Assembly (NCBI GenBank): GCA_001775095.1
Contig: MFCA01000025.1
Span: 116,075-180,074 of the forward strand
DNA from: Candidatus Curtissbacteria bacterium RIFOXYA1_FULL_41_14
GTDB taxonomy: Bacteria > Patescibacteriota > Microgenomatia > Curtissbacterales > GWA2-41-24
Length of the DNA: 64,000 bases
Reading direction: 5' to 3'
Shown: positions 5,485 through 50,078 of the stretch, in pieces
Layout: each line of letters starts with the position of its first letter
How positions within the stretch are numbered: position 1 is the first letter of the stretch
Notes under the pieces: generated by a model
What the model saw: only the letters and a program-made list of their open reading frames with translations
The model's database searches: none
What the model was told of the DNA's origin: nothing
Program-made: the position numbers and the translations under genes

Positions 5485-6261
5485 TTAATTCTGTTGCGCA
5501 AACTTTATCATTTCCTCGAAAATAAACGCTCCGTGGGGTTTGGTAATTTTCTCCCTTCGCCAGTTTGGATATTGGGTGATGTCGACAAATTTTTCCGGGT
5601 GAGGCATCAGACCTAAAATTCGGCCTGTCGGATCGCAAATGCCGGCAATAGCGTTTTGCGATCCATTGGGATTCTGCGGATAAGTCTGTGTCGGTTGACC
5701 GCTCTCGTCAACATACCTGAAAACGACTAAACTTTCATCTTCGACCTTTTGGATTGTTTTTGGCTCGGCGTAAAACTTGCCTTCGCCATGATTGACTGCG
5801 ATTCTAATAAGTTCATCTGAACCGTTGACAAAAAGACATTTGCTATCCCCTGTTTTTATTGTCACCCAGCGGCATTCAAAACGGCCGCTGTCATTACCAG
5901 CCAAAGTAACATCCATTTGGCCAAAGTTGTTAAAAGGTAAAAGACCGGTTCTGACCAGGGTTTGAAAACCGTTACAAATTCCCAAAATTAATCCCTTTTT
6001 TGAAATGAATTCTTGAAGTTCATTTTTCAAAAAACTAATAAGCTCCACTGCCAGAATTTTCCCGGAAGCGACATCGTCTCCATAAGAAAACCCGCCGGGA
6101 AGAGCCAAAATTTGGAAAGAGGATAACTTTTTACTTTTGCCTCTTAGTTGGTTAACATGAACCATCTCCGGCGCTGCCCCGAACTTTTCAAAAGCATAGA
6201 AAAGCTCCTCGTCACAATTAGTTCCGTCAGTTCTAAGAATGCAAATTTTCGGCTTGATCAT
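5485..6261 (-). CDS. purQ: phosphoribosylformylglycinamidine synthase, glutamine amidotransferase subunit
   Basis: Class-I GATase with catalytic 'GICNGFQ' Cys and 'HPE' His/Glu. Sits directly downstream of purL. Confidence 0.85.
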   Translation of the reverse strand: MIKPKICILRTDGTNCDEELFYAFEKFGAAPEMVHVNQLRGKSKKLSSFQILALPGGFSYGDDVASGKILAVELISFLKNELQEFISKKGLILGICNGFQTLVRTGLLPFNNFGQMDVTLAGNDSGRFECRWVTIKTGDSKCLFVNGSDELIRIAVNHGEGKFYAEPKTIQKVEDESLVVFRYVDESGQPTQTYPQNPNGSQNAIAGICDPTGRILGLMPHPEKFVDITQYPNWRREKITKPHGAFIFEEMIKFAQQN

Positions 6262-6262
6262 G

Positions 6263-9199
6263 TTAATGAAATATCTCCCTCATTGGTTTTTGCCAAGCAT
6301 TTTTGAGTTTATCTAAATCAAGATTACACAGATTCTTGCTACCACTGAATACACTGATTGTTTTGTCGGCTACTGTTTTTCCAAAAATAGCGTACGGTAT
6401 TCCAGTAAAAAGTTTTTTGGCAATTTGCGGATTTTCAACTTCAACTAAAAATGTTCCGGCTGTTTCAGAAAAAAGGATAAAGTCGGGACGTAGATTCACC
6501 CCCGGGGTGTCCTCATGGTGTCGTCCTGACTTCACCCCGGGGGTGTCAGTCTGGGTGACTACTGAAGACAGGTCGACCTCTGTCCCGCAATTTCCTCCAA
6601 AACACATTTCGGCAAGTGCCGCAGCCAAACCGCCTTCAGATATGTCATGACAGGATAAAATTTGACCTTGTGTTATTCCTTTTGTGACCGAGCCAAAAAC
6701 TTTCGTAAGAGACTTGAGATCAATCTTTGGAATTTCTGGATCTTTCGTGCCGAGAACATCGAAATAAGTAGATCCGCCAAGATTTTTAAAATCAGGTTTA
6801 CCAACTAAAACTATCGTTGATCCTTCTGATTTGAAATCAGAGCTGACTGTTTTTCTAACATCGGGAATTTTGCCAAAGACAGAAATAAGAAGGACAGGTG
6901 GTATCTTGAGAATTTTCCCCGAGGGGTACCTGTAAGTTGACGAAAGACTGTCTTTACCTGAAATAAATGGCATTTTTAAAAGTCTGGCCATATCAGAGCA
7001 GGCATCCACTGACTGGTCTAAGTCAAAAAGTGATTCTTCGTCGGGAAATGGCCAAATGAAATTGTCGATAAGAGCGGCGTTTTTAATATCACCACCGCAG
7101 GAGATGAAATTTGAAACCGCTTCAACAATTGCCCAAATGCTTCCCCCGTATGGATCAATAAGGTTAAGGGTGGGATTTAAACCATGGGTTATTACAACAC
7201 CGTATGGTTTTTTGAGGATTGGTCTAACAATAGTCCCGTCATTGGGTCCGTCTAAATTCACCCCGCTAAATGGATGCAGGGCATTTGTCCCTTGGACATT
7301 GTGGTCATACATTCTGACAATTGGTTCTTTGGAGCAGACATTGCCATGAGAAAGAACCTTCTCAAAAATCTCCTGCCAGTCATCTGCCTTTTTAGGAAGA
7401 GGTGGTAGTTTCTTGTTTCTTGTTTCTCCCGACCTCGTCTCGACTCGGTCGAGGACGGGTTGTTGCTTGTTTCTTGTTGTCTTCATGACTCTTTGAGGTA
7501 GTCCGTGATGTAAAAATTGCATTTCCAGATCACAAACTGGCTTTTTATCAAAAGTAACTCTTAGACGTTTAGAACCGTCGAATTTACCAATTACAGTCGC
7601 CTCAACGTTGTGAAGTTGGCAGATTTGAACAGCCTTTTTGAGATTTTGGGGATCAATTGCTAAAACCATTCGTTCCTGCGATTCGGAAATAAAAATTTCC
7701 CAAGGGGAAAGACCGGAATATTTAAGCGGCGCTTTCTCCAAAAAGACACGGGCGCCGATTTTTTGGCCCATCTCACCGATTGCCGACGAAAATCCACCGG
7801 CTCCGCAATCGGTGATTGCTCTTATTAATCCTTGATCGCGAAGGTCGTAAACTGCATCGATCATTCTTTTTTCCTCAATGGCATTGCCGATCTGAACCGC
7901 TGAACCTAAGACCGTTATTGTCCGATCTGTCATTTCTCCGGAGGAAAAAGTTGCTCCATGGATACCGTCTCGGCCAGTTCTACCCCCGATTGTTACAATT
8001 AGATCCCCTACTTTGGGGAATTGTTTTTTAGCGATTTTTTTGGGGATCAAACCGTAAGAACCGACCCCCACTGTGCATTTGGCGCGAAAATCCGGATGAA
8101 AATGCACGGATCCGTTATTTGTAGGGATGCCTACCCTGTTTCCGTAATCGCGGACTCCGGCAACAACTTTGCGCAGGATGTAGTCGGGAGGTAAACATCC
8201 GGGAGGAATAGATTTTGATGGAAGATCAGGCGGCGCAAAACAAAAAATATCAGTTGATGCGATAATTTTTGCACCTTTACCTGTTCCTAAAACATCACGA
8301 AAAACTCCACCGGAACCGGTCATTGCCCCACCGTACGGTTCAATTGCGCTAGGACTGTTGTGAGTTTCGACTTTGCCGGAAATTGCCCATCCGTCATAGA
8401 AATCAATGACACCGGAGTTATCGACAAATGCCGAAATGATCAGTTTTTTATTGTAGTTTGCTGTTTGCCGAATCCTGTCTATCAAGGGTTTTTTGACTTT
8501 TCCATCAACAATCAATTTTGCTTTGAAAGTCTTGTGGACGCAGTGTTCACTCCAGGTTTGAGCCAGGACTTCAATTTCGCAATCAGTCGGATCACGGCTG
8601 ATTTTGGCAAAATAGTTTTTAATTATCTTCATTTCCTGGCGGTTTAAGAAAAGACGATCTTTGGAAAGTTCCATTAACTGGCTATCTGATAGATTTCGAA
8701 CTGGGATTTTTTCGACTTTACCCTTTTGACCGGAAATCATCAGTGTCTTAGGAGGTTTTTTGACAACTTGTTCGACCGTTTCATTAACCAGAAGCCTATT
8801 CGTTATTATTGAGAGATCTTTGTCTTTCACCTTTCCCCAAAAGGCGTATTCGGTTGAGGTATCGGCAGCAGTCAATTTAATTTTCAAATCAGATGCTGCC
8901 TTGAGGAGCGATCCAACTTCAGGATTCATTACGCCGGGTTTATAGGCGACTTCGATTTTTTTATCGAAGCTGGAGAAAATTGGTTTGTTAAAAGACATTT
9001 GTTGATTAATTGGTTCAAATAAAACAGCTTGAGAAAATTTTTGGGCATCAGAGAAAGAGATTCCTTCAAGGCGGTAGACTTTGGATGAGCGGATATTTTT
9101 GATTGATTTGATGCCAAGCGTCCTTTTAATTTCGGCGAGGAGCTCCTGGCCTTTGGAATCGGTGGGGCTATTTGCAGTAATCCTTATTTCATAAATCAT
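6263..9199 (-). CDS. purL: PurS-PurL fusion: FGAM synthase II with an N-terminal PurS domain, carrying two in-frame repeat insertions
   Basis: First ~80 aa are PurS-like, followed by PurL AIRS/AIRS_C domains. At 978 aa it is ~150 aa longer than PurS+PurL. The extra length includes 'TDTPGVKSGRHHEDTPGV' and 'QQPVLDRVETRSGETRNKK', both encoded by palindromic repeats. Confidence 0.85.
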   Translation of the reverse strand: MIYEIRITANSPTDSKGQELLAEIKRTLGIKSIKNIRSSKVYRLEGISFSDAQKFSQAVLFEPINQQMSFNKPIFSSFDKKIEVAYKPGVMNPEVGSLLKAASDLKIKLTAADTSTEYAFWGKVKDKDLSIITNRLLVNETVEQVVKKPPKTLMISGQKGKVEKIPVRNLSDSQLMELSKDRLFLNRQEMKIIKNYFAKISRDPTDCEIEVLAQTWSEHCVHKTFKAKLIVDGKVKKPLIDRIRQTANYNKKLIISAFVDNSGVIDFYDGWAISGKVETHNSPSAIEPYGGAMTGSGGVFRDVLGTGKGAKIIASTDIFCFAPPDLPSKSIPPGCLPPDYILRKVVAGVRDYGNRVGIPTNNGSVHFHPDFRAKCTVGVGSYGLIPKKIAKKQFPKVGDLIVTIGGRTGRDGIHGATFSSGEMTDRTITVLGSAVQIGNAIEEKRMIDAVYDLRDQGLIRAITDCGAGGFSSAIGEMGQKIGARVFLEKAPLKYSGLSPWEIFISESQERMVLAIDPQNLKKAVQICQLHNVEATVIGKFDGSKRLRVTFDKKPVCDLEMQFLHHGLPQRVMKTTRNKQQPVLDRVETRSGETRNKKLPPLPKKADDWQEIFEKVLSHGNVCSKEPIVRMYDHNVQGTNALHPFSGVNLDGPNDGTIVRPILKKPYGVVITHGLNPTLNLIDPYGGSIWAIVEAVSNFISCGGDIKNAALIDNFIWPFPDEESLFDLDQSVDACSDMARLLKMPFISGKDSLSSTYRYPSGKILKIPPVLLISVFGKIPDVRKTVSSDFKSEGSTIVLVGKPDFKNLGGSTYFDVLGTKDPEIPKIDLKSLTKVFGSVTKGITQGQILSCHDISEGGLAAALAEMCFGGNCGTEVDLSSVVTQTDTPGVKSGRHHEDTPGVNLRPDFILFSETAGTFLVEVENPQIAKKLFTGIPYAIFGKTVADKTISVFSGSKNLCNLDLDKLKNAWQKPMREIFH

Positions 9200-10550: not shown

Positions 10551-10709
10551 AGATAAATTTCTAAATCCTAAATCCTAAATCCTAAATCCTAAACAAATTC
10601 TAATGACCAAAATCCAAATTTCAAAACTTTTTATTTTTTTTGAATTTAGATTTTTGATATTGTTTAGAGTTTAGATATTAGTGCTTAGGATTTATTTAGG
10701 TCAATTAGG

Positions 10710-11458: not shown

Positions 11459-11695
11459 TTACTTTTCGTCTTTAAGGTAAAGTCCCAAAATCCCCAGAAC
11501 ACCGGCAACCAAAAAAAGCTGTGTAGGAGCGATCGATGTAAAGTCGTTTTGAGTAACAAACTCAAAAGCTCCAACCAGAATAATCACAGCTGTCGCTGCA
11601 ATTAATAGTTGCGACAAAGGGGCGCTTTTGGACCTTTTTAAAAGCGCTTTTTTGGCCATATAAATTATAATTGCATTTTTTGCCAAAAGTGTCAA
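11459..11695 (-). CDS. small two-TM membrane protein, first gene of the pur operon, leaderless
   Basis: 78-aa hydrophobic ORF. On the minus strand TTGACA-~17-AATTAT/TATAAT sits immediately before the ATG. Confidence 0.4.
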   Translation of the reverse strand: MTLLAKNAIIIYMAKKALLKRSKSAPLSQLLIAATAVIILVGAFEFVTQNDFTSIAPTQLFLVAGVLGILGLYLKDEK

Positions 11696-11770
11696 CTTCC
11701 ACTCTCTGCGTCATTCCCGCAAATGCGGGAATCTATACAATAATTTGATTTGGGGAATAAAAAAGATTAC

Positions 11771-12241
11771 GGGAAGAGAGTAAGCCAGATTCTGTTTTAC
11801 CCTTCGATTACACTCAGGGTAAAACCCTGAGCTTGTCGAATGGGTTTTAACGATCATCTATCTCGAAATGACAATTTGATCATTTCGGCTCGCCTTTTGG
11901 GCGGGCTGCCCCTACTTAGAACCTCCCGGAAGCATGGTCAAACGGTTCTAGTCTGGGTTGCAACAGGTAGGATTGTCAGCGTTTCACTCCCGCTCGTCTC
12001 TGTGACTCTCAAGTCTTGTCAGTTCAAGACCTGTTCTAAACCCCGTATGCGGGGAACATCTGCTGTGGAGCAGACAAGGGTCTAGACACCAGCTATTAGC
12101 CTTCGACTGTACTCAGGCTACCCTGAATTACATTGAAGGGTACTAGTCGGAGCTTACACTCCGTCCCTTGCTTCCTGTTGTCTGGACTTTCCTCCAGGTA
12201 CCGTACGGTACCTGGCGATCGTTCTTCTTCCCGAAATCAGA
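11771..12241 (-). ncRNA. rnpB: RNase P RNA (bacterial type)
   Basis: Minus strand carries the conserved 'GGAGGAAAGUCCAGAC' (P4 5' strand) near the 5' end and 'ACAGAAUCUGGCUUA' (P4 3' strand) near the 3' end, plus 'GUGAAACGCUG'-like segments. A T-run and the hairpin 'GATTCCCGCATTTGCGGGAATG' follow the 3' end. Confidence 0.7.
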
Positions 12242-12342
12242 TATGGATTATATCAAAAAATAGGCAAATCTTCCACTAACCGATAACACCCCGGGGTGCG
12301 CAAAGATACACCCAGGCTCACCTCGGGGGTGGATCTTTGACT

Positions 12343-13374
12343 TTACTGTTCCTTTAATCCGTCTTCAAATTTCTGATCTTCTTCTAAGAATTCTCTAAAA
12401 ATAATCCTGGCGACAACTACTGTCGGTACTGCCAGAACGGCTCCCCCAATCCCGGCAAGTTTGGCGCCAATTAAAAGGGCTAGAATAACCACAGGAGGTT
12501 GCAGTCCAACCGCTTTGGACATAACCACAGGAACAATAAGGTGGTTTTCCAGTTGCTGGACTATAAAGAACAAGGCAGCGATTGCTAAACCAATGAGTGG
12601 GGAGATAGTTAAACCGACAAGAATTGCCGGAATGGAAGAAACGATTGGTCCGACAATTGGTACAATTTCCAAGAGTCCGGCAACTAGAGCCAGTGGCAGC
12701 GCGAATGGAATTTGCAAGATTGTCAAACCAATAAATATTAATATACCCACAATAAATGACAGGGCGATTTGTCCTCTAACCCAGCTCCCTAAACCGGCCT
12801 CTACTTTTGAAATCGCACTGCTGACCTTTTTTTCTTGTTTCCCGGAAAATGGCGAAGCGATAAATTTGATGGCGCTTTTGTGCTCTAGAAGAAGATAGAA
12901 GGTAAATACAAAAATTGTAATTAATAAAAATATGCTTGAAAAAATCGCAGTCGATATTGAAATTAAATTGCCGATAACTGCTTGAATTTGTCTGGTTAAA
13001 ATGTCCGAAAGGTTCTGAACGGGGATTTGGTAAAAGACTAAAAAGTCATTAATCTTGGAGATGATTTGCGGTAATTTTGAAATAAAATCGGATGTCTGGG
13101 ATATCAGAGGCGGAATGATAATACCGACAATAAAGGAAATAACTGCAATGAGTATTATGTAAACGAATAAAATCGACAGGACTCTTGGAATTCGTCTTAC
13201 GTTTAACCATTCGACAGGTTTAAGAAGCGCCGAGAGCAGAATTATTGAGAAAAAAACAAAAACTAAAATTTGACGGATTTGAATTAGAAACCAAAGGCCA
13301 ATCAGAACCGAAACCGTAAAAATAACTGTTTTGTAGGAAATTTCGATTCTCAATGGCGTGTTATCTTGCGGCAT
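12343..13374 (-). CDS. AI-2E family transporter (PerM/YhhT-like permease)
   Basis: ~8-TM protein with the characteristic AI-2E topology and length. Confidence 0.65.
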   Translation of the reverse strand: MPQDNTPLRIEISYKTVIFTVSVLIGLWFLIQIRQILVFVFFSIILLSALLKPVEWLNVRRIPRVLSILFVYIILIAVISFIVGIIIPPLISQTSDFISKLPQIISKINDFLVFYQIPVQNLSDILTRQIQAVIGNLISISTAIFSSIFLLITIFVFTFYLLLEHKSAIKFIASPFSGKQEKKVSSAISKVEAGLGSWVRGQIALSFIVGILIFIGLTILQIPFALPLALVAGLLEIVPIVGPIVSSIPAILVGLTISPLIGLAIAALFFIVQQLENHLIVPVVMSKAVGLQPPVVILALLIGAKLAGIGGAVLAVPTVVVARIIFREFLEEDQKFEDGLKEQ

Positions 13375-13474
13375 TTGTCCTTCAGTATATCAGGAAGCCC
13401 ATTCAAGCGAAAGCTTGAAGCGCAATCTCGCCCTCCAAGAGACACACCCGGTGTGTGCTCGGATGGGACTTGGC

Positions 13475-14488
13475 TCACACCGGGTGCGAAACAAGTTTTT
13501 TCAACTCTTGCTGCCAGTTGGGTTTTGAAATATCAAAAAGCCTAATTTTGGGAAACTTTTTAAACCAGGTTTTTTGGCGTCTGATAAAACTATGAACGTT
13601 GCCTCTTAGGCGGTTAATCGCTTCTCTCTGACTGATTTTGCCCGAAAGGTATCTTGATATCCAGCGACATTCAAGGCCAAGATCATCAAGCCACTGGGGG
13701 CTAACCCTTTTCTCTAGAAGTGTTTGAACTTCTTCAATCATTCCGTGCTCCAATCGTTCCTCAAGCCATTTATCAGCGCGGCTGTAAAGATAATTGTTTG
13801 GTGCGGTTAAGCCGATGATTTGATATTCCCCATCAAGCGACACACCCGGTGTGCGCTTTGACGCGACCCCGCTCACACCGGGTGTGAGATAGGAAGCGCG
13901 AGCGATTTCAATCGCGCGAATCAAGCGTCTTGGGTTTTGACGATCCGACTCATTCATACTCTTCGCTCTTTTTGGATCAATCTTTTCAAGTTTTTGATAA
14001 AGATGATCAATCGATAATTTCTCAAGCTCTCGGCGAAGTGTTAAGTCAGAAGGAATGCCGACTGATCCAATTCCATCGAGCAATGCTTTAATATAAAATC
14101 CTGTACCGCCCACTACAATCGGTAATTTCTTTGATACTATGATTTGAATCATAGTATCAGAAGCAAATTTTAAAAAATCTGATACCGAAAAAATTCCTTG
14201 CTCCGAACCCGGTTCGCGCAAAGATCCATCTGGGCTCGAATCGGGTTCGTATCTGGGTGGTTCCACAAGGTCGAAGCCGTGGATTTTGACACCATCGACA
14301 ATCCAGAAACCTTTGTGCTTTTCGACTTTTGATTTGAAGGAGGCTTTACCTGTTGTGATATCAAGATTCTGATATACCTGTCTTGAATCGGCTGAAATAA
14401 GTTCACCCTGAAACTTGCGTGCAAGTTGAAGGGCTAAGGCAGTTTTACCTGTTGCTGTCGGTCCATAAATAATCAATCTCTTTTTCAT
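13475..14488 (-). CDS. miaA: tRNA dimethylallyltransferase, with in-frame palindromic-repeat insertions
   Basis: P-loop 'GPTATGKT' and IPPT core. About 30 aa longer than typical MiaA. Carries a repeated 'TPGVS' peptide encoded by GC-rich palindromes. Confidence 0.85.
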   Translation of the reverse strand: MKKRLIIYGPTATGKTALALQLARKFQGELISADSRQVYQNLDITTGKASFKSKVEKHKGFWIVDGVKIHGFDLVEPPRYEPDSSPDGSLREPGSEQGIFSVSDFLKFASDTMIQIIVSKKLPIVVGGTGFYIKALLDGIGSVGIPSDLTLRRELEKLSIDHLYQKLEKIDPKRAKSMNESDRQNPRRLIRAIEIARASYLTPGVSGVASKRTPGVSLDGEYQIIGLTAPNNYLYSRADKWLEERLEHGMIEEVQTLLEKRVSPQWLDDLGLECRWISRYLSGKISQREAINRLRGNVHSFIRRQKTWFKKFPKIRLFDISKPNWQQELKKLVSHPV

Positions 14489-16383
14489 CTAATTTGATAG
14501 AGCTTGTAATCAGGTCCGCCAGAAACAAAAGTAAAATTTTTGGCAAAATAATCTTCATTGAGTCGTGGTTCAAAATTGCGTTCGCGAGGACTTATTAATA
14601 CATAGTCAACCTTATACTTATTAAAAAGAAAGGATGGGCCACCTTTAAACATTGTGTGCACATCGGTTTCTCTTTGACTCCAATCGGCAAGTCCCCAAGA
14701 CCAGGCATTACCTGGAAATCCAATGATAATTTTTCTACCGGCAAGGGCAGTAACTGGGTGATCATGAATTGCTGCTGTTAAGATAAGAGACCTTGGTTCT
14801 GTTTTTGCTATGATTACATCGGCAAGTTCGATATCATTTCGAGACCATAGATTTATTTTGGTTTTTTGAGTGTTAAATATCCTTGTTACCTCAATAACTC
14901 CGGAAATGATAAGTGTTATAAACAATACTGTTGCGATAATTTTTCCTAGATCGTTTTTTTTATAAAAATATAACAAAGATTCTGCAACAAAGAATGCTCC
15001 AATTAGATACCAATAGGTCATTATTTTCAAATTATCGTATGGCCAAGGTGCAAAACGGATAATATTTGGCAAAATGAATAAAATGACTGAGGCTATCAGT
15101 ACATTTCTGGCAACCGGAGCCAGCTTTATTTTAAAAATAGCAAAAATAAAAAGAGGCCAGAAGAATCCAGTGTTTTTAAACCAGAATAAAAAAATATTCT
15201 CATGTCCTTTCATCCATCCCCAATTAAGTCCAACTGTCTGGCTCAAATTCAAAGATATGAATAAAGGTAACTGAATAAGACCAAGGGTTACTATCGGCAA
15301 CAAAAAACAAAAGATAATTGCTGCTAAATGACTTTTGGCTTTCGCCAAACCGTATTGAATAAAATCAGTAAGAATTGTAAGAGGAATTAAAACGCTAATT
15401 AAGAATAAGAAGCTAAGATATGAATGCATGTGGAAAAAGGGCATAATGGCTACTAAACAACCAGAGGCCAGTAAGTACGAATTTTTGTTCCTAGAAATAC
15501 CCAGAATCAAAAATATCAAGCCAAGTAAGAACATCGGCAAACCAAAAAGGAATCCTCTTTGAGGGAGAAGCTCTGAATATAAGAATGAGAAAAACCATAA
15601 ATTTTTCTCCCCATAAAAAGTGTATTCATGGGGAGGAAATAATAAAGTTTGCCAAAAGTTTGATGATGTCAGCAGGTCTTGCAAGAAGTACAAAAAACCC
15701 AATCCACCCCAAAAAATACCTATAAATAAACCAACTATTGCTGTTTTTTTTGAGCCGGTTAAGATAATTCCTAGAAAGTAAATCAAGACTATGACAGATA
15801 TACCCAAAATTATCCCAGGTATTATTAAAGATGTTTTTAAACTAGCCCCTAAAACCTGCAGAACAGCGGATAAGAAATCGGCGAAAAAAGGATAGGAGAT
15901 AGTTTGACCAGCATAAAGTGGATTTTGGGGAGGAAAATTATTCCCATGAACAAATGAGGAAATAATTGCTATATGGACCGGCCAATCTGTCCAAACGAGG
16001 CGGTTACCGGCAATGATACCATTTTCGTTAACATAGATTGATTTGAAAAAAAAGACGACTATAAATATTCCCAGAACTAAAAGACTGCCAACAATAAAGG
16101 GATTCTTTTTAACTTCTAATTTTCCAAAAATTTCGAAAGCTCCAGGTCTTTTAGTTAAAAAAATTAATGATGGGAAAAATGTCAAGGAGGTTGCTATTAA
16201 AACATTCGTTATATTAAGGCCGAACACTTGTGAAATCCCAAAAATTACAAGAATATTTACAATAACTCCAAGAATGATTGCAAAGAAAATTTTTATATAT
16301 GAGGGAAGAACTATTTTTACTGCTTCCATAATGGCCAGGCCGAGACCCATGGAGGCGAAAAAGAAAAGTAGTGTGAGTGGCAT
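14485..16383 (-). CDS. large polytopic membrane protein with a periplasmic C-terminal domain; paralog of 16422..18152; GT-C-like glycosyltransferase only suspected
   Basis: ~13 predicted TM segments. Shared motifs with its paralog: 'NFPPQNPLYAG..YPFFADFLSA' and C-terminal 'GFPGNAWSWG'. Confidence 0.5.
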   Translation of the reverse strand: MPLTLLFFFASMGLGLAIMEAVKIVLPSYIKIFFAIILGVIVNILVIFGISQVFGLNITNVLIATSLTFFPSLIFLTKRPGAFEIFGKLEVKKNPFIVGSLLVLGIFIVVFFFKSIYVNENGIIAGNRLVWTDWPVHIAIISSFVHGNNFPPQNPLYAGQTISYPFFADFLSAVLQVLGASLKTSLIIPGIILGISVIVLIYFLGIILTGSKKTAIVGLFIGIFWGGLGFLYFLQDLLTSSNFWQTLLFPPHEYTFYGEKNLWFFSFLYSELLPQRGFLFGLPMFLLGLIFLILGISRNKNSYLLASGCLVAIMPFFHMHSYLSFLFLISVLIPLTILTDFIQYGLAKAKSHLAAIIFCFLLPIVTLGLIQLPLFISLNLSQTVGLNWGWMKGHENIFLFWFKNTGFFWPLFIFAIFKIKLAPVARNVLIASVILFILPNIIRFAPWPYDNLKIMTYWYLIGAFFVAESLLYFYKKNDLGKIIATVLFITLIISGVIEVTRIFNTQKTKINLWSRNDIELADVIIAKTEPRSLILTAAIHDHPVTALAGRKIIIGFPGNAWSWGLADWSQRETDVHTMFKGGPSFLFNKYKVDYVLISPRERNFEPRLNEDYFAKNFTFVSGGPDYKLYQIR

Positions 16384-22472: not shown

Positions 22473-23747
22473 TTAGTGAACGGCACTTCGAGGATTACCT
22501 TTGTGATTAATTAGCTTATCAAGGATCTGGAAGCGGCGCTGTTTTTCTTTGTAGGAAACATCATCGTCAAACGCTTTCGCAGCGGCAGTATTTGGTCGAG
22601 GGGAGTATTTGGCAATATAAGCATAGGCAAAATTAACTGTTTGAGCTAACTTAACTGTGTTTTGAAAATTTCTTTCGCTTTCTTGGCAAAAGCCGACAAT
22701 AATATCTGTCGAAATCTGAGTGTCGGGAATCTCCTTTCTGATTTTTTTGACCAAATTGATATACTGGCTCGCTGTATACCATCTATTCATTTTTTTAAGC
22801 ATTTGGTCATCTCCGGACTGAACAGGCAGATGAATGTTTCTGTCAATTTTGGGATTTTTGGAGATTGTCTCGATGAGCTCATCGGAAAAATCCCAGGGAT
22901 TTGAAGAAATGAATTTAACCGTTTCAACTCCCCCACTTCGTCCGGCTTTGCCGGACTTCGAGGGGCAAGCTTCTATTTTGCAAACTTCTTCAAGAAGATA
23001 AGGAAACAATGTTGGAATTCGCAATTTTCCCAAATGCTTTACCATCACCGGTTTAACTACTCGACCATTAGGAAGCTTATAACCGGCTTTTGTATTTTTG
23101 ACTCGATCAGATCCATATGAATTAACATTTTGGCCAAGGAGGGTAATTTCTCGGCATCCTCTTTCCGCCAGTTCTTTGACTTCATCGATAACATCTTCAA
23201 ATGGCCTTGATACTTCTTGCCCTCTGGTAAAAGGTACGACGCAATAAGTACAAAAATTATTGCAGCCGTTGGAAATTGGTATCCAAGCATGAGTTGCGTC
23301 ACTTCGAAGTGCCGGATAATTAAAACCAACCTCTTCCAGAGGTAAAAATTCATCAACTTGGGGTATTCTCTTGTGAAGAGTATTAAGATACTTACCACTC
23401 GTGTCCCTGGCGACCATTCCAGTCATGCAGCCGGTAAGAACAATTTTAGGCCTCCGGCCCGGTCTCCGACGTAGAGACGTCTCTGACTCGGAACGAGGGC
23501 CTCCGGCCCGGTGGGCCTCTTTGATAATATTTCTGATAAATCCGGTCACTTTATCTTCTGCAGATTGACGGACCATGCAGGTGTTGATGATTATTTCAGA
23601 AGCTGATTTGAGATCCTTTGCCCTTTTAAAACCCCTTGCCAAATAGTAACTGGCAATTCTTTGGCTATCTGCCCAGTTTTGCTGGCAACCGAAAGTTTTG
23701 ATGTAAAATGTAGGAGATTTCATTGTTAAATTGTTAAATACGCACAA
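22473..23747 (-). CDS. radical-SAM methylthiotransferase (MiaB/RimO family), with two in-frame GC-rich repeat insertions
   Basis: N-terminal MTTase 'KTFGCQQNWADSQ', radical SAM core and TRAM-like C-terminus. Insertion peptides are 'RAGGPRSESETSLRRRPGRRP' and 'CPSKSGKAGRSGG'. Confidence 0.7.
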   Translation of the reverse strand: MCVFNNLTMKSPTFYIKTFGCQQNWADSQRIASYYLARGFKRAKDLKSASEIIINTCMVRQSAEDKVTGFIRNIIKEAHRAGGPRSESETSLRRRPGRRPKIVLTGCMTGMVARDTSGKYLNTLHKRIPQVDEFLPLEEVGFNYPALRSDATHAWIPISNGCNNFCTYCVVPFTRGQEVSRPFEDVIDEVKELAERGCREITLLGQNVNSYGSDRVKNTKAGYKLPNGRVVKPVMVKHLGKLRIPTLFPYLLEEVCKIEACPSKSGKAGRSGGVETVKFISSNPWDFSDELIETISKNPKIDRNIHLPVQSGDDQMLKKMNRWYTASQYINLVKKIRKEIPDTQISTDIIVGFCQESERNFQNTVKLAQTVNFAYAYIAKYSPRPNTAAAKAFDDDVSYKEKQRRFQILDKLINHKGNPRSAVH

Positions 23748-24204: not shown

Positions 24205-24245
24205 CCGTCATCCTGAGTCCGGCTTTGCCGGACGAAGGATCTAGA

Positions 24246-25031: not shown

Positions 25032-25134
25032 AATTTGAAATTCCTGCCTGCCGGCAGGCAGGTGCAATTTGACATTTGAAATTCCCGGCCTTGTCTCGAC
25101 TTTGTCGAGGACGGGTTGAAATTTGAAATTGATA

Positions 25135-31510: not shown

Positions 31511-31584
31511 CGGGGTGTAGTTCAGTTGGCCAGAACGCCAGGCTGGGGGTCTGGAAGTCGTCGGTTCAAGTCCGACCACCCCGA
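31511..31584 (+). tRNA. tRNA-Pro (anticodon GGG)
   Basis: Cloverleaf by hand: acceptor CGGGGTG/CACCCCG, D-arm GTTC..GAAC, anticodon arm CCAGG-CU GGG GG-TCTGG, T-arm GTCGG-TTCAAGT-CCGAC, discriminator A. No encoded CCA. Confidence 0.75.
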
Positions 31585-31807
31585 CCCTTCGACTCACTTC
31601 GTTCGCTCAGGGTCTTCGACCCGCGAAGTGGGGTGAAGGGCGTGGAGACAGCGCAGAATTCACTTGCAGAAATAAAACATTTAAAGTTGTATACAAAGAG
31701 GAATATGCAACTTTAAAAATTTCACCCCCGATGTGTACAAGCATTCATACGTCGGGATTAAAATTGCTATTTGACAAAGTTCAATTAAATAGGGTTATAT
31801 ATTAGGT

Positions 31808-45908: not shown

Positions 45909-46271
45909 TTACCCTCGGCTTTTTTGTATATCTTTCTCTTTGCCTTTATCTTTGTCTTTTTGTTTTTTACCTTTTGTTTCTGATTTTGGCATAAGCATAG
46001 CAATCGTTTGCCCTGATTTAAGATAAACAATTGCCTTTTTGCCGCCGCCGGTCTTTACTTGCTTTCGAGTCTTGGCAACTCTTTTAGTCTTTGGTGCAAT
46101 ATTGGTCATATTTACTCGCATAACATCGACACCGAACTGAGAAAAAACCTGTTTTGCTACCGCGTTTTTGGTTGCCTGCGTTACCACTAGAAAAGTATAA
46201 ATACCTTTCTCCATCTGCTTATAAGCTTTTTCCGAAAGTATGGCTTTTTTGATAACACTTTTTAATTTCAT
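45909..46271 (-). CDS. rplW: 50S ribosomal protein L23, with Lys-rich C-terminal tail
   Basis: L23 family. Confidence 0.85.
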   Translation of the reverse strand: MKLKSVIKKAILSEKAYKQMEKGIYTFLVVTQATKNAVAKQVFSQFGVDVMRVNMTNIAPKTKRVAKTRKQVKTGGGKKAIVYLKSGQTIAMLMPKSETKGKKQKDKDKGKEKDIQKSRG

Positions 46272-47110
46272 TTAGCGACTCCTATTGCCTCTTTGGATAG
46301 CAATATATTTCTATTCTTAATAATTTCGAAGGCATTGAGATTGGCCATACGACTGACTAGTATTCTCTGAATATTTCGCGTCGCCAGTTTCACATCTTGT
46401 CCATTGTTTACCGGTTTGTCGGAAATTACTAAAAGACAATTTCCTTGTAAATCTAATTTTTTAAGTAAACTTGCAATAATTTTCGTCTTAGCTTGAATTT
46501 TTTCGATATTAGTAATTACTTTGACACTTCCTTCTTGGGCTTTTAATGAAAATGCACTCACCAGAGCCTTTCTTTTCATTTTCTTAGGCAAAGTTAAAGT
46601 TACCTTTCTGAATTTAGGGCCATGGGCAACACCTCCGCCTACCCAAAGCGGTGAGCGGATTGATCCTGCGCGGGCTCTGCCAGTGCCTTTTTGGCGCCAG
46701 GGCTTGCGGCCCCCGCCTCTTGTCTGGGAACGAGTTTTTGTAGAACCCGCGTGAACTGACTGGTTTACCGAATAGATGCGAATTGCCTGGGCTAAAAGCT
46801 TTTCGTTTGGCTTTTGACCGAAAATTTCGCGAGGAAGAGCAACTTTGCCAATAGATCGGCCGTTTATGTCAAAAGCAGGAGCCAAAAGTCCTCCACCAGC
46901 GGATTTAACCTGCCTGCCGGCAGGCAGGCTCTTGACGGTTTTTGTCTTTCTCGGTGCCTTCTGTTTATCTTCTGTGCCTTCTGTGATTATCTTTTTATCC
47001 ACGATCTTAGAACTGGTCTTCGATCTAATTTTGACCTGTTTAGATTTTGCTATCTTTGTTATTTTTTTTGCTGCTGCCATAATTATTTCTCTTGAAACCA
47101 CTGAGAGCAC
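46268..47110 (-). CDS. rplD: 50S ribosomal protein L4, with ~75-aa N-terminal extension containing an in-frame palindromic repeat ('LPAGRQ')
   Basis: L4 core begins near 'FDINGRSIGKVALP'. The extension contains 'CTGCCTGCCGGCAGGCAGG'. Confidence 0.8.
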   Translation of the reverse strand: MLSVVSREIIMAAAKKITKIAKSKQVKIRSKTSSKIVDKKIITEGTEDKQKAPRKTKTVKSLPAGRQVKSAGGGLLAPAFDINGRSIGKVALPREIFGQKPNEKLLAQAIRIYSVNQSVHAGSTKTRSQTRGGGRKPWRQKGTGRARAGSIRSPLWVGGGVAHGPKFRKVTLTLPKKMKRKALVSAFSLKAQEGSVKVITNIEKIQAKTKIIASLLKKLDLQGNCLLVISDKPVNNGQDVKLATRNIQRILVSRMANLNAFEIIKNRNILLSKEAIGVAK

Positions 47111-48596: not shown

Positions 48597-48848
48597 AAAT
48601 ACGGTTCGAGTTGGAAAGTCGAGAAGAAAACTATTCTAAGCGGTTAGGCTTGAAGTAAAATCTTGTGATTATCATACCTTTATAGTTCTCGACTATGCTC
48701 GAACAATAATTAGATTCTATCGTCCTTCGATAAACTCAGGACTCCAGAATGACATTTGATTGTCAATTCTATATCAGCAGGTCGCCCTTCGACAAGCTCA
48801 GGGCGCTCCTCTGATATATCAGACTCAGCGGAGCTGAGGGCTGATATC

Positions 48849-48893: not shown

Positions 48894-50078
48894 TTAAGCA
48901 AGAATCTTGGAAACCACTCCGGCACCAACCGTGTGGCCGCCTTCGCGGATTGCAAACCTTAAGCCTTCTTCAAGAGCAACGGGGGAAATTAACTTTACCT
49001 TCATTTTAATATTATCACCCGGCATAACCATCTCAGTGCCCTCGGGTAAAGTGGCTTCGCCGGTAACATCAGTCGTTCGAATATAAAATTGAGGCCTGTA
49101 GCCGGTAAAGAACGGTGTGTGACGACCGCCTTCTTCCTTGGCTAGAATATAAACTTCCGACTCGAATTCGGTGTGCGGAGTAGTGGTGCCGGGTTTTGCC
49201 AAAACCTGCCCTCTTTCAACTTGATCTTTTTCGACGCCCCTAAGCAAAACGCCGATATTGTCCCCGGCCTGACCTTCGTCCATCGACTTTCTGAACATTT
49301 CAACTCCGGTGACCACAGTTTTTTTAGTTGCTTTAATTCCGACAATTTCAACCTCTTCATTAACTTTAACAACTCCCCGCTCGACACGACCGGTGACCAC
49401 CGTTCCCCGACCCTTGATTGAAAAGACATCTTCAACCGGCATCAGGAAAGGTTTGTCTAGATCGCGGGCAGGAGTTGGGATTTTCTCATCAACTGCAGCC
49501 ATTAATTCTTCGATTGACTTAACTGCTTCGGCATCGCCTTCCAGGGCTTTTAAGGCTGAACCGCGGATAATAGTGGCATTTTTGCCGTCAAACTGGTATT
49601 TATCTAAAAGCTCACGGATCTCCAACTCGACAAGATCTAAAAGTTCCTTATCCTGGACCATATCCGTCTTGTTCAAATAGACTACCATTGCCGGAACATT
49701 AACTTGGCGGGCCAAAAGAACGTGTTCCCGGGTTTGAGGCATCGGGCCGTCGGGAGCGCTAACAACTAAAATAGCGCCGTCCATTTGGGCGGCACCGGTA
49801 ATCATGTTTTTGATGTAATCTGCGTGTCCGGGAGCGTCAATATGGGCATAATGTCGTTTTTCGGTTTCGTATTCGACGTGGGTGATATTGATGGTGATTC
49901 CGCGCTGTTTTTCCTCCGGTGCATTGTCGATCTGATCGAAAGACTTGGCCTGAGCCAGACCTTTTTTGGAGAGAACCTGAGTGATTGCGGAAGTTAACGT
50001 GGTCTTGCCATGGTCGACGTGACCAATCGTTCCGATATTAACGTGCGGTTTAGTTCTTTCAAATTTTCCTTCAGCCAT
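48894..50078 (-). CDS. tuf: elongation factor Tu
   Basis: '[10 protein letters not shown]', 394 aa. Confidence 0.95.

Follow-up and report, generated by a model that had tools for sequence, protein, structure and literature searches.

The DNA considered here is a 64,000-nucleotide stretch of the genome of Candidatus Curtissbacteria bacterium RIFOXYA1_FULL_41_14 (contig MFCA01000025.1, positions 116,075 to 180,074), referred to below as the window. It has a GC content of about 40% and contains five copies (A to E) of a GC-rich unit of 45–49 bp, each with two near-palindromic arms separated by a short spacer, in or beside genes that all lie on the minus strand. Copy A is inside purSL, which encodes FGAM synthase II (978 aa, 6263..9199; Pfam FGAR-AT_linker, AIRS, and AIRS_C; PDB 3viu and 3d54). 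PurS is apparently joined to PurL in this single open reading frame (ORF); a sister locus is annotated "PurS (faint)," and one database match is named PurSL. The gene for tRNA dimethylallyltransferase, miaA (337 aa, 13475..14488; Pfam IPPT and IPT; PDB 2qgn), holds copies E and D, and its 3′ end falls within copy C. Between copy C, upstream, and copy B, downstream, is the gene for an AI-2E family transporter (12343..13374; Pfam AI-2E_transport, E 5.4e-59), and purD and purN are also among the minus-strand genes near the copies. The nearest named homologues of the window MiaA are the MiaA proteins of Candidatus Curtissbacteria, which belong to the Microgenomates within the candidate phyla radiation (CPR). 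An earlier reading of the letters alone (the sequence-only reading) had rightly taken the genome to be CPR-like. Groundwater metagenome contigs and GCA_001775175.1 (MFCE01000007.1) encode this MiaA.

Each arm is 13 nt long (12 nt in arm 1 of copy B), with six bases (X6), a central C or G, and then X6′. Reverse complementing arm 1 gives arm 2, so that in each copy one arm is centred on C and its partner on G. The two inverted units form one hairpin with a stem of 13 bp, and the spacers between them measure 20–23 nt. All five copies are assigned to the minus strand, and their limits and arms are stated below as they read on the plus strand. Copy A (6497..6545) has the arms CACCCCCGGGGTG (6497-6509) and CACCCCGGGGGTG (6533-6545) around a 23-nt spacer, is in frame in purSL, and encodes the peptide DTPGVKSGRHHEDTPGV. 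Copy B (12287..12331) is intergenic, with the arms CACCCCGGGGTG (12287-12298) and CACCTCGGGGGTG (12319-12331) and the 20-nt spacer CGCAAAGATACACCCAGGCT; it ends on the 3′ side of the AI-2E permease gene, at a distance of 11 nt from the stop codon. Copy C (13443..13488) has the arms CACACCCGGTGTG (13443-13455) and CACACCGGGTGCG (13476-13488) and a 20-nt spacer and overlaps the 3′ end of miaA, whose last codons, H-P-V, and TGA stop (13475-13477) come from it. Copy D (13841..13886) has perfect arms, CACACCCGGTGTG and CACACCGGGTGTG, and a 20-nt spacer, and is in frame at what we call site 2 of miaA, where the peptide TPGVSGVASKRTPGVS makes up residues 202-217. Copy E (14204..14249), with the arms CGAACCCGGTTCG and CGAATCGGGTTCG and a 20-nt spacer, is in frame at site 1, and its peptide YEPDSSPDGSLREPGSE (EPDS...EPGS) makes up residues 80-96. 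Copies C and D, 398 bp apart, have their arms in common, while the spacers of copies B and E are identical at 16 of 20 positions and their arms differ. The sequence-only reading had placed all five copies within a few bases of these coordinates, its variant at 14196..14258 being copy E. Its arm consensus CAC(A/C)CCGGGGTG (CACMCCGGGGTG) was imprecise, as it matches copy B only.

The copies stand out clearly from the rest of the window. A covariance model built from 13 copies (R1) was run on the 64-kb window at E≤10 with filters off and returned exactly these five copies, with E values of 1.6e-11 to 1.2e-9, and no further match. The scores were 45.9 bits (E 1.2e-9) for copy A, 46.3 for B, 53.1 for C, 49.6 for D, and 47.2 for E. 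In the R1 alignment, 94% of the cells are paired, 9 of the 13 pairs change on both sides, and covariation is 0.515 compared to 0.19 in shuffles (0/500). As a check on chance, pairs of 13-nt arms that are complementary at 12 or more of 13 positions and lie 8–30 nt apart were sought in the window and in 20 dinucleotide shuffles, giving 22 raw matches against a shuffle mean of 1.2. Of the 22, fifteen fell on four of the copies (A, C, D, and E) and a further one was an alternative pairing within copy B, which itself went unscored because of its 12-nt arm. The predicted RNA folds of four copies reach −23 to −35 kcal/mol with z of −3.8 to −5.4 (−35.3 kcal/mol and z −5.4 for copy A); that of copy B is weaker (−22.5 kcal/mol, z −1.7).

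The coding copies and their distribution among genes and genomes

All coding copies are in frame and stop-free, as the sequence-only reading had claimed. It had further regarded them as insertions, and here orthologue alignments lent support at purL and at miaA site 1 and not at site 2. In the PurL alignment, DTPGVKSGRHHEDTPGV occurs only in the window and in one 83%-identical orthologue. In most other PurL orthologues, from Curtissbacteria, Levybacteria, and others, "DLSS.." is followed directly by "RPDF," and compared to PurL of T. thermophilus (PDB 3viu) the segment amounts to about 15 extra residues. The site 1 segment YEPDSSPDGSLREPGSE is missing from 14 of 27 Curtissbacteria MiaA orthologues, and in a rough neighbor-joining tree most of the carriers group in a single subclade. 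On these alignments, the purL and miaA site 1 segments are lineage-specific in-frame insertions. Site 2, by comparison, is a hypervariable linker with a length close to that in B. halodurans MiaA (2qgn), so that copy D occupies or replaces a variable loop and adds little length.

Mapping onto structure also went the way that the sequence-only reading had suggested, with inserts in loops. The AlphaFold model of MiaA has a mean predicted local distance difference test (pLDDT) score of 78.8 and a well-predicted core around the inserts. Scores below 50 are found at residues 84-97 and 202-217, which cover both element peptides, and elsewhere only at residues 141-144. Both MiaA insert peptides are thus predicted to be disordered loops. 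Comparison with a close relative (locus L127 of the set described below) indicated recent change in purL. Over the aligned region its purL is about 82% identical to that of the window at the nucleotide level, and it has two GC-rich in-frame inserts, of +27 and +30 nt, that are missing from the window, while a 36-nt palindrome of the window purL (7427-7462) is missing from the relative. Inserts have therefore been gained or lost recently.

The wider distribution of the family was determined with R1 in about 1.45 Mb from about 130 loci (numbered with the prefix L), mostly Patescibacteria DNA flanking miaA. Matches were confined to the window genome, L012, L124-L130, and L133. Among these, L127 and L128 come from close relatives of the window genome, and five are other Curtissbacteria loci (L124, L125, L126, L129, and L130). 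L133 is a Ca. Daviesbacteria contig, and L012 is from a single-cell genome of a Patescibacterium, in which MiaA and its window counterpart have only 41% identity. The family was missing from about 115 other Patescibacteria loci in this search, and its presence is patchy among close relatives. A MiaA search of genome contigs found only six Curtissbacteria-like loci, none with the family. In a metagenome MiaA search, the matches listed were mostly distant Microgenomates and were used mainly as a negative background. Exact twin-arm patterns had 0 matches in viral contigs, and nothing there points to a phage as the carrier.

In-frame copies are carried by the genes for PurL, MiaA, PurQ, phosphoglycerate kinase (PGK), BacA, and a PMT-family glycosyltransferase; the PGK and BacA genes of the single-cell genome contain the same 13-nt arms. 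The spacers are not palindromic, yet by eye they have motifs in common between different genes and lineages. "GGAC(T/G)" is found in copy A of the window, in PurL of L126, in both PGK and BacA of L012, and in the PMT-family gene of L124; "AGC...GTCAA(A)G" is found in copy D of the window, at site 2 of L124, and in the Daviesbacteria PurL. Convergence is an unlikely source of common non-palindromic motifs, and on this sequence reading the copies descend from common sources. The same DNA is also read in other frames: it gives HLRGG in the Daviesbacteria PurL and HPGGG in the PGK of L012, and copy C, in another reading frame, yields the TGA that terminates MiaA. The proposal of a repeat family spread through genes thus held for unrelated host genes and for other genomes, with a copy number that is low and clustered (five in about 84 kb, the window with 10 kb of contig past each end).

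Symmetry of the arms and the origin of the copies

The arms are conserved to an extent that the encoded peptides do not require. At miaA site 1, perfect arms (CGAACCCGGTTCG/CGAACCGGGTTCG) are present in L124 and L129, and L130 and the window have one arm mismatch each, even though these MiaA proteins are only about 64–68% identical and their spacers differ. The L124 orthologue of copy D has identical arms and a diverged spacer, and at the position of copy C a perfect arm is present in L128, a close relative. Over the miaA orthologues, synonymous third positions are identical in 49% of comparisons gene-wide (600/1228), compared to all of them, in our own count, in arm codons with an unchanged amino acid. 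The constraint is therefore on nucleotides and not on the peptide.

Where arms do differ between orthologues, they change in a concerted manner. Copy A has the arms CACTCCCGGAGTG/CACTCCGGGAGTG in L127 and CACCCCCGGGGTG/CACCCCGGGGGTG in the window; the four substitutions are C4T and G10A in both arms, and they keep both the pairing between the arms and the palindrome within each arm, with a spacer that is identical at 16 of 23 positions. Site 2 of miaA likewise has CAATCCCGGATTG/CAATCCGGGATTG in L129 compared to CACACCCGGTGTG/CACACCGGGTGTG in the window. Over 19 copies, pairing is 93% between arms and 91% within arms, the C-S-G core and the outer C/G are invariant, and the variable positions 2–5 have the fully symmetric states AAAA/GGGG; CCCC/AAAA; CCCC/TTTT/AAAA; and CCCC/TTTT. 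Arm decay is seen only in L125 and L126. An RNA hairpin would need only pairwise compensation between arms, and the fact that the palindrome within each arm is kept as well points to a process at the DNA level, with each half-arm able to serve as template for its three counterparts. The arms are thus probably kept symmetric by a templated process of this kind. Template switching is known to perfect quasi-palindromes and has been put forward for inverted repeats that are conserved in bacteria (PMC5941160) and, in the discussion section of PMC6649704, for coding palindromes of Nematomorpha mitochondria.

Taken together, these results are read here as a dispersed, non-autonomous family of palindromic insertions that is tolerated as in-frame loop peptides and whose symmetry is templated at the DNA level, a reading to which we give a probability of about 0.6. 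Its members are very short, GC-rich, hairpin-forming units of about 34–50 bp, longer where a unit is nested in the loop, with two 13-nt near-palindromic arms and a spacer of 8–23 nt. The family would have spread through a sub-lineage of Ca. Curtissbacteria, and it is also present in a Daviesbacterium and at least one distant Patescibacterium. In essential genes, a copy would persist only if it is in frame, stop-free, and situated in a tolerant surface loop or at the C-terminus, and intergenic copies lie just beyond gene ends. Coding copies would most simply be translated as short, disordered Pro/Gly/Ser-rich peptides (X-Pro-Gly-X twice). The arms would not be held by protein-level selection, and template switching or hairpin-directed conversion among the four half-arms would give rise to their perfect four-fold symmetry. 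New copies would arise mostly nearby, by copying with ragged boundaries, and the elements would most likely be selfish or neutral for the host. With the corrections given above, the first interpretation of these repeats is supported.

Several observations weigh against this reading. No transposase, REP-associated tyrosine transposase (RAYT), HNH or GIY-YIG domain, or homing endonuclease appears in the domain records of the 84 kb, which consist of Pfam scans of 23 window ORFs and precomputed domains for the genes of fetched loci and leave many window ORFs unscanned. The copies have no target-site duplication, no fixed termini, and no flanking direct repeats. Copies C and D are alike over 9 of 12 nt beside one arm, and B and E over about 5 nt beside the opposite arm. 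All five copies lie within 7.8 kb, with none in the other 76 kb or so (R1 found no more copies in the 10 kb past each window end), and local duplication fits this clustering as well as transposition does. The PurL site of L125 has a homologue of the spacer, itself a small hairpin (GTCCGCCagcgGGCGGAC), without arms, which is not predicted if a whole unit was inserted once. Copy E combines arms typical of its site with a spacer like that of copy B (16/20), while its orthologues have related 11-nt A-rich spacers, and an extra conversion step is needed to account for this mixture. The perfect conservation of arms across deep orthologues could also reflect a selected function, and translation of the inserts, like mobility itself, is something that we infer. 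The ragged borders, the clustering, copy E, and L125 suggest short-range copying and conversion, possibly with nested growth, in place of cut-and-paste of a fixed unit, a process that accounts for the detail only in part.

Some of these points are shared with an explanation in which nothing moves between distant sites and a quasi-palindrome arose separately at each locus, in a tolerant loop, through snap-back or template-switch mutations, the likeness of the arms being due to convergence on stable GC-rich palindromes together with local duplication. The lack of a transposase, target duplication, and fixed ends, the confinement to 7.8 kb, the armless spacer homologue in L125, and the C/D and B/E pairs, which resemble local partial duplications with ragged borders, all suit such an in-situ origin, as do unrelated twin palindromes in many other Patescibacteria MiaA genes (GACCTACGAGGTC in L057 and AGGGTCGGACCCT in L117). 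It is nevertheless rather unlikely, given the homologous non-palindromic spacer motifs in different genes of lineages that differ at the class level, the same 13-nt arms in PGK and BacA of a Patescibacterium with a 41%-identical MiaA, and the patchy distribution among close relatives. A role of the copies as functional mRNA hairpins, in which the stems are selected, for example for ribosome pausing, 3′ protection from RNases, or attenuation, would agree with very stable folds in four of the five copies (z −3.8 to −5.4), nucleotide-level conservation of the arms across orthologues, and the position of two of the five copies at gene 3′ ends. Such a role would require pairing of arm 1 with arm 2 only, leaving palindromic arms and four-way changes unexplained; some close relatives have copies that others lack, and L125 and L126 have decayed arms. 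Furthermore, the mismatches in the stems of the imperfect copies B and E are C·A in the mRNA sense and become G·T only on the antisense, and there is no U-tract, terminator call, or Rfam match, so this role appears quite unlikely. An intrinsic terminator was considered separately and rejected, as 11600-14600 has no terminator-like site, the loops are 20–23 nt long, and no T-run follows. A known RNA family was likewise rejected: the only Rfam 15 match in the window is one tRNA (31511-31584).

The dyad symmetry of the arms, with their invariant C-S-G core and outer C/G and a symmetry that is kept in evolution, is also what would be expected of paired sites for a dimeric protein, such as a nucleoid protein, a CCSGG restriction-modification enzyme, or a recombinase. 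However, the variable positions differ within one genome (CACC, CACA, CGAA) in a way that a single protein would not read, the spacing of the arms ranges from 21 to 36 bp, and the copies, few in number, are found within unrelated coding regions. With 84 sites observed compared to about 101 expected, CCSGG shows neither avoidance nor enrichment, which also disposed of a restriction-site logic as such, and a host function at the DNA level is very unlikely. Least probable is that the peptides themselves are selected as functional Pro/Gly loops (TPGV or EPGS repeats). The same peptides are kept in several orthologues, but they are predicted to be disordered, are missing from many other orthologues, and are encoded by element DNA that is read elsewhere in other frames (HLRGG, HPGGG), and protein-level selection does not require the frozen synonymous positions of the arms.

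The reading of a dispersed insertion family with templated symmetry can be taken further, to a new class of mobile DNA whose working principle is the four-fold symmetry itself. A pair of 13-nt palindromes would be copied to new sites and re-perfected by hairpin- or cruciform-templated synthesis, either without a dedicated transposase or with an unrecognised structure-specific enzyme of CPR bacteria; in a variant, ribosomes would hop from arm 1 to arm 2 and the insert would be partly silent in the protein, like the byp elements of mitochondria. This extension is speculative, and we consider it unlikely.

Other palindromes in and beyond the window

Further GC-rich palindromes were observed in the window. 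A second family, the 36-nt palindrome TCCCGRCCTYGTCTCGACTYKGTCGAGGACGGGTTG, is present at 7427-7462 and 25083-25118 in copies that are 89% identical, in frame in two unrelated genes (as QPVLDRVETRSG in purL and QPVLDKVETRPG in an ABC-2 permease). A third, CCTGCCTGCCGGCAGGCAGG, is present at 25043-25068 and 46903-46928, in the ABC-2 permease gene and in an unscanned ORF (46268-47110) in an apparent ribosomal-protein gene region, and is in frame with the peptide LPAGRQ; AGGCAGG palindromes like it occur in L005, L006, L036, and L130 miaA site 2. The UPF0004/radical-SAM (MiaB-like) gene (ORF 22473-23747) has GC-rich palindromes at 22925-22971 (SKSGKAGRS) and 23449-23527 (AGGPRSESETSLRRRPGRRP), and the core GTCCGGCTTTGCCGGAC is found again at 24205-24234, a short way beyond the DAGK gene.

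Another GC-rich repeat, dispersed and of the form CCCTTCGAC(N)GCTCAGGGC, is intergenic in the window, at 11794-11843, 12100-12140, 31585-31657 (directly after the tRNA at 31511-31584), and 48775-48813 (upstream of ORF 48894-50078). In L127 (about 1145-1175), the same repeat is the in-frame +27 nt insert of purL, encoding AGPEQSRRAN. L127 also has a gene for a 97-aa GIY-YIG domain protein (1904-2197) directly after purL, where the window purL is followed instead by 5485-6261 (GATase_5); this may be a free-standing insertion of a nuclease gene, and we draw no link between it and the palindromes. A stretch of about 600 bp between a 78-aa ORF and the AI-2E gene (11700-12280) has no convincing ORF and no Rfam match and holds structured GC-rich segments, such as GGTACCGTACGGTACC at about 12198. 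The purD-purN intergenic region contains an AT-rich imperfect inverted repeat (10562-10694), made up in part of TAAATCC tandem units.

Beyond the window, site 2 of miaA in L129 (about 700-900) has two tandem twin-palindrome units, the loop of each holding the same nested GC-rich sequence, about 45 nt long (..GCCCGCTTCGCTGAGCTCGCGAGGCGAGCA), and as a result the L129 MiaA is 392 aa long; the loops appear to be targets for further insertion. Unrelated GC-rich twin palindromes (GACCTACGAGGTC, AGGGTCGGACCCT, CCAACTTGG) are present in miaA of more distant Patescibacteria, at 881-916 and 1273-1320 in L057, 1988-2023 in L117, 10508-10538 in L071, 8300-8342 in L122, and 1807-1844 in L114. The twin-palindrome architecture recurs in sequences that differ, with miaA as an apparent hotspot.

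Odd insertions are a known feature of proteins in CPR bacteria (Patescibacteria), and many proteins predicted for these bacteria have no matches elsewhere. Since the window holds several other in-frame GC-rich palindrome families, in-frame palindromic DNA may be a general source of such insertions, and read-through of GC-rich palindromic inserts, if true, would explain part of them. The family would also be an example of selfish DNA within essential bacterial genes outside Rickettsia and organelles. Inserts of this kind inflate protein divergence, distort marker-gene alignments and phylogenies, and can pass for real domains. The arms, in their four-way evolution, preserve a clean natural record of how templated (concerted) mutation acts on very small palindromes, and this could be used for the study of template switching in unculturable organisms. 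The main points of interest are this four-fold concerted symmetry, the new phylum, and the presence of further in-frame palindrome families in one window.

Comparison with known palindromic elements

No palindromic or in-frame element of CPR bacteria (Patescibacteria) was found in the part of the published literature that was searched, which is not proof of novelty. Yeast mitochondrial GC clusters and byp elements are GC-rich, hairpin-forming sequences of about 27–60 nt in an AT-rich organellar genome, some of them inside protein genes. The likeness to the Curtissbacteria family is in size, GC-richness, and an AT-rich host. The byp elements of Magnusiomyces capitatus reportedly break the reading frame and are skipped by ribosome hopping. 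Compared to these and to the T4 gene 60 type, the coding Curtissbacteria copies are in frame and stop-free and do not require bypass, although codons that match for take-off and landing would be available in their identical arms.

[quoted passage not shown] However, MITEs have target-site duplications and a parent insertion sequence (PMC3184786, PMC10969869), and the Curtissbacteria copies show no duplication, nor was any insertion sequence seen in the 84 kb. Repetitive extragenic palindromic sequences (REPs) and their inverted pairs (REPINs) are, like the present units, short, GC-rich, palindromic, and non-autonomous, and the inverted pair forms one larger hairpin (PMC3184786, PMC10969869). 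REPs differ in being extragenic, in numbering hundreds per genome, and in flanking a RAYT gene (PMC3184786, PMC10969869). Copies A, D, and E are wholly in coding sequence and copy C overlaps the end of miaA; no RAYT (Y1 HUH transposase) is present among the genes with domain records in the 84 kb, which cover only part of the window ORFs and of the genome.

The coding palindromes of Nematomorpha mitochondria (PMC6649704) are similar in that inverted repeats in coding sequence are actively maintained and are gained and lost between species, and in that the two arms encode similar peptides. They are up to 284 bp long, reside in animal mitochondria, and form no dispersed sequence family (PMC6649704), whereas the Curtissbacteria arms are 13 nt long and each is itself palindromic.

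The analogy drawn in the sequence-only reading was with the Rickettsia palindromic elements (RPEs), which measure about 100–150 bp and make up the sequence families RPE-1 to RPE-10 of Rickettsia (Ogata et al. 2000, Science 290:347, and Claverie & Ogata 2003, both cited through PMC6649704 and PMC10969869). As they are described in those citing papers, RPEs resemble the present family in being palindromic and non-autonomous, in lying in frame in unrelated conserved genes of a reduced genome, and in adding surface peptides that leave the enzyme intact, with no associated transposase. The analogy holds for this effect and fails for the arms: the repeat identity of RPEs is described as being lost over time (PMC6649704), whereas the Curtissbacteria arms remain perfect and four-fold symmetric across deep orthologues. 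The Curtissbacteria units are also shorter, at about 34–50 bp, belong to another host phylum, and have a lower copy density. Collectively, these comparisons indicated that the family is not a member of the RPE, REP, or MITE groups, and that it is RPE-like in effect and set apart from RPEs by its size, its host, and the behaviour of its arms, a distinction drawn on these features.

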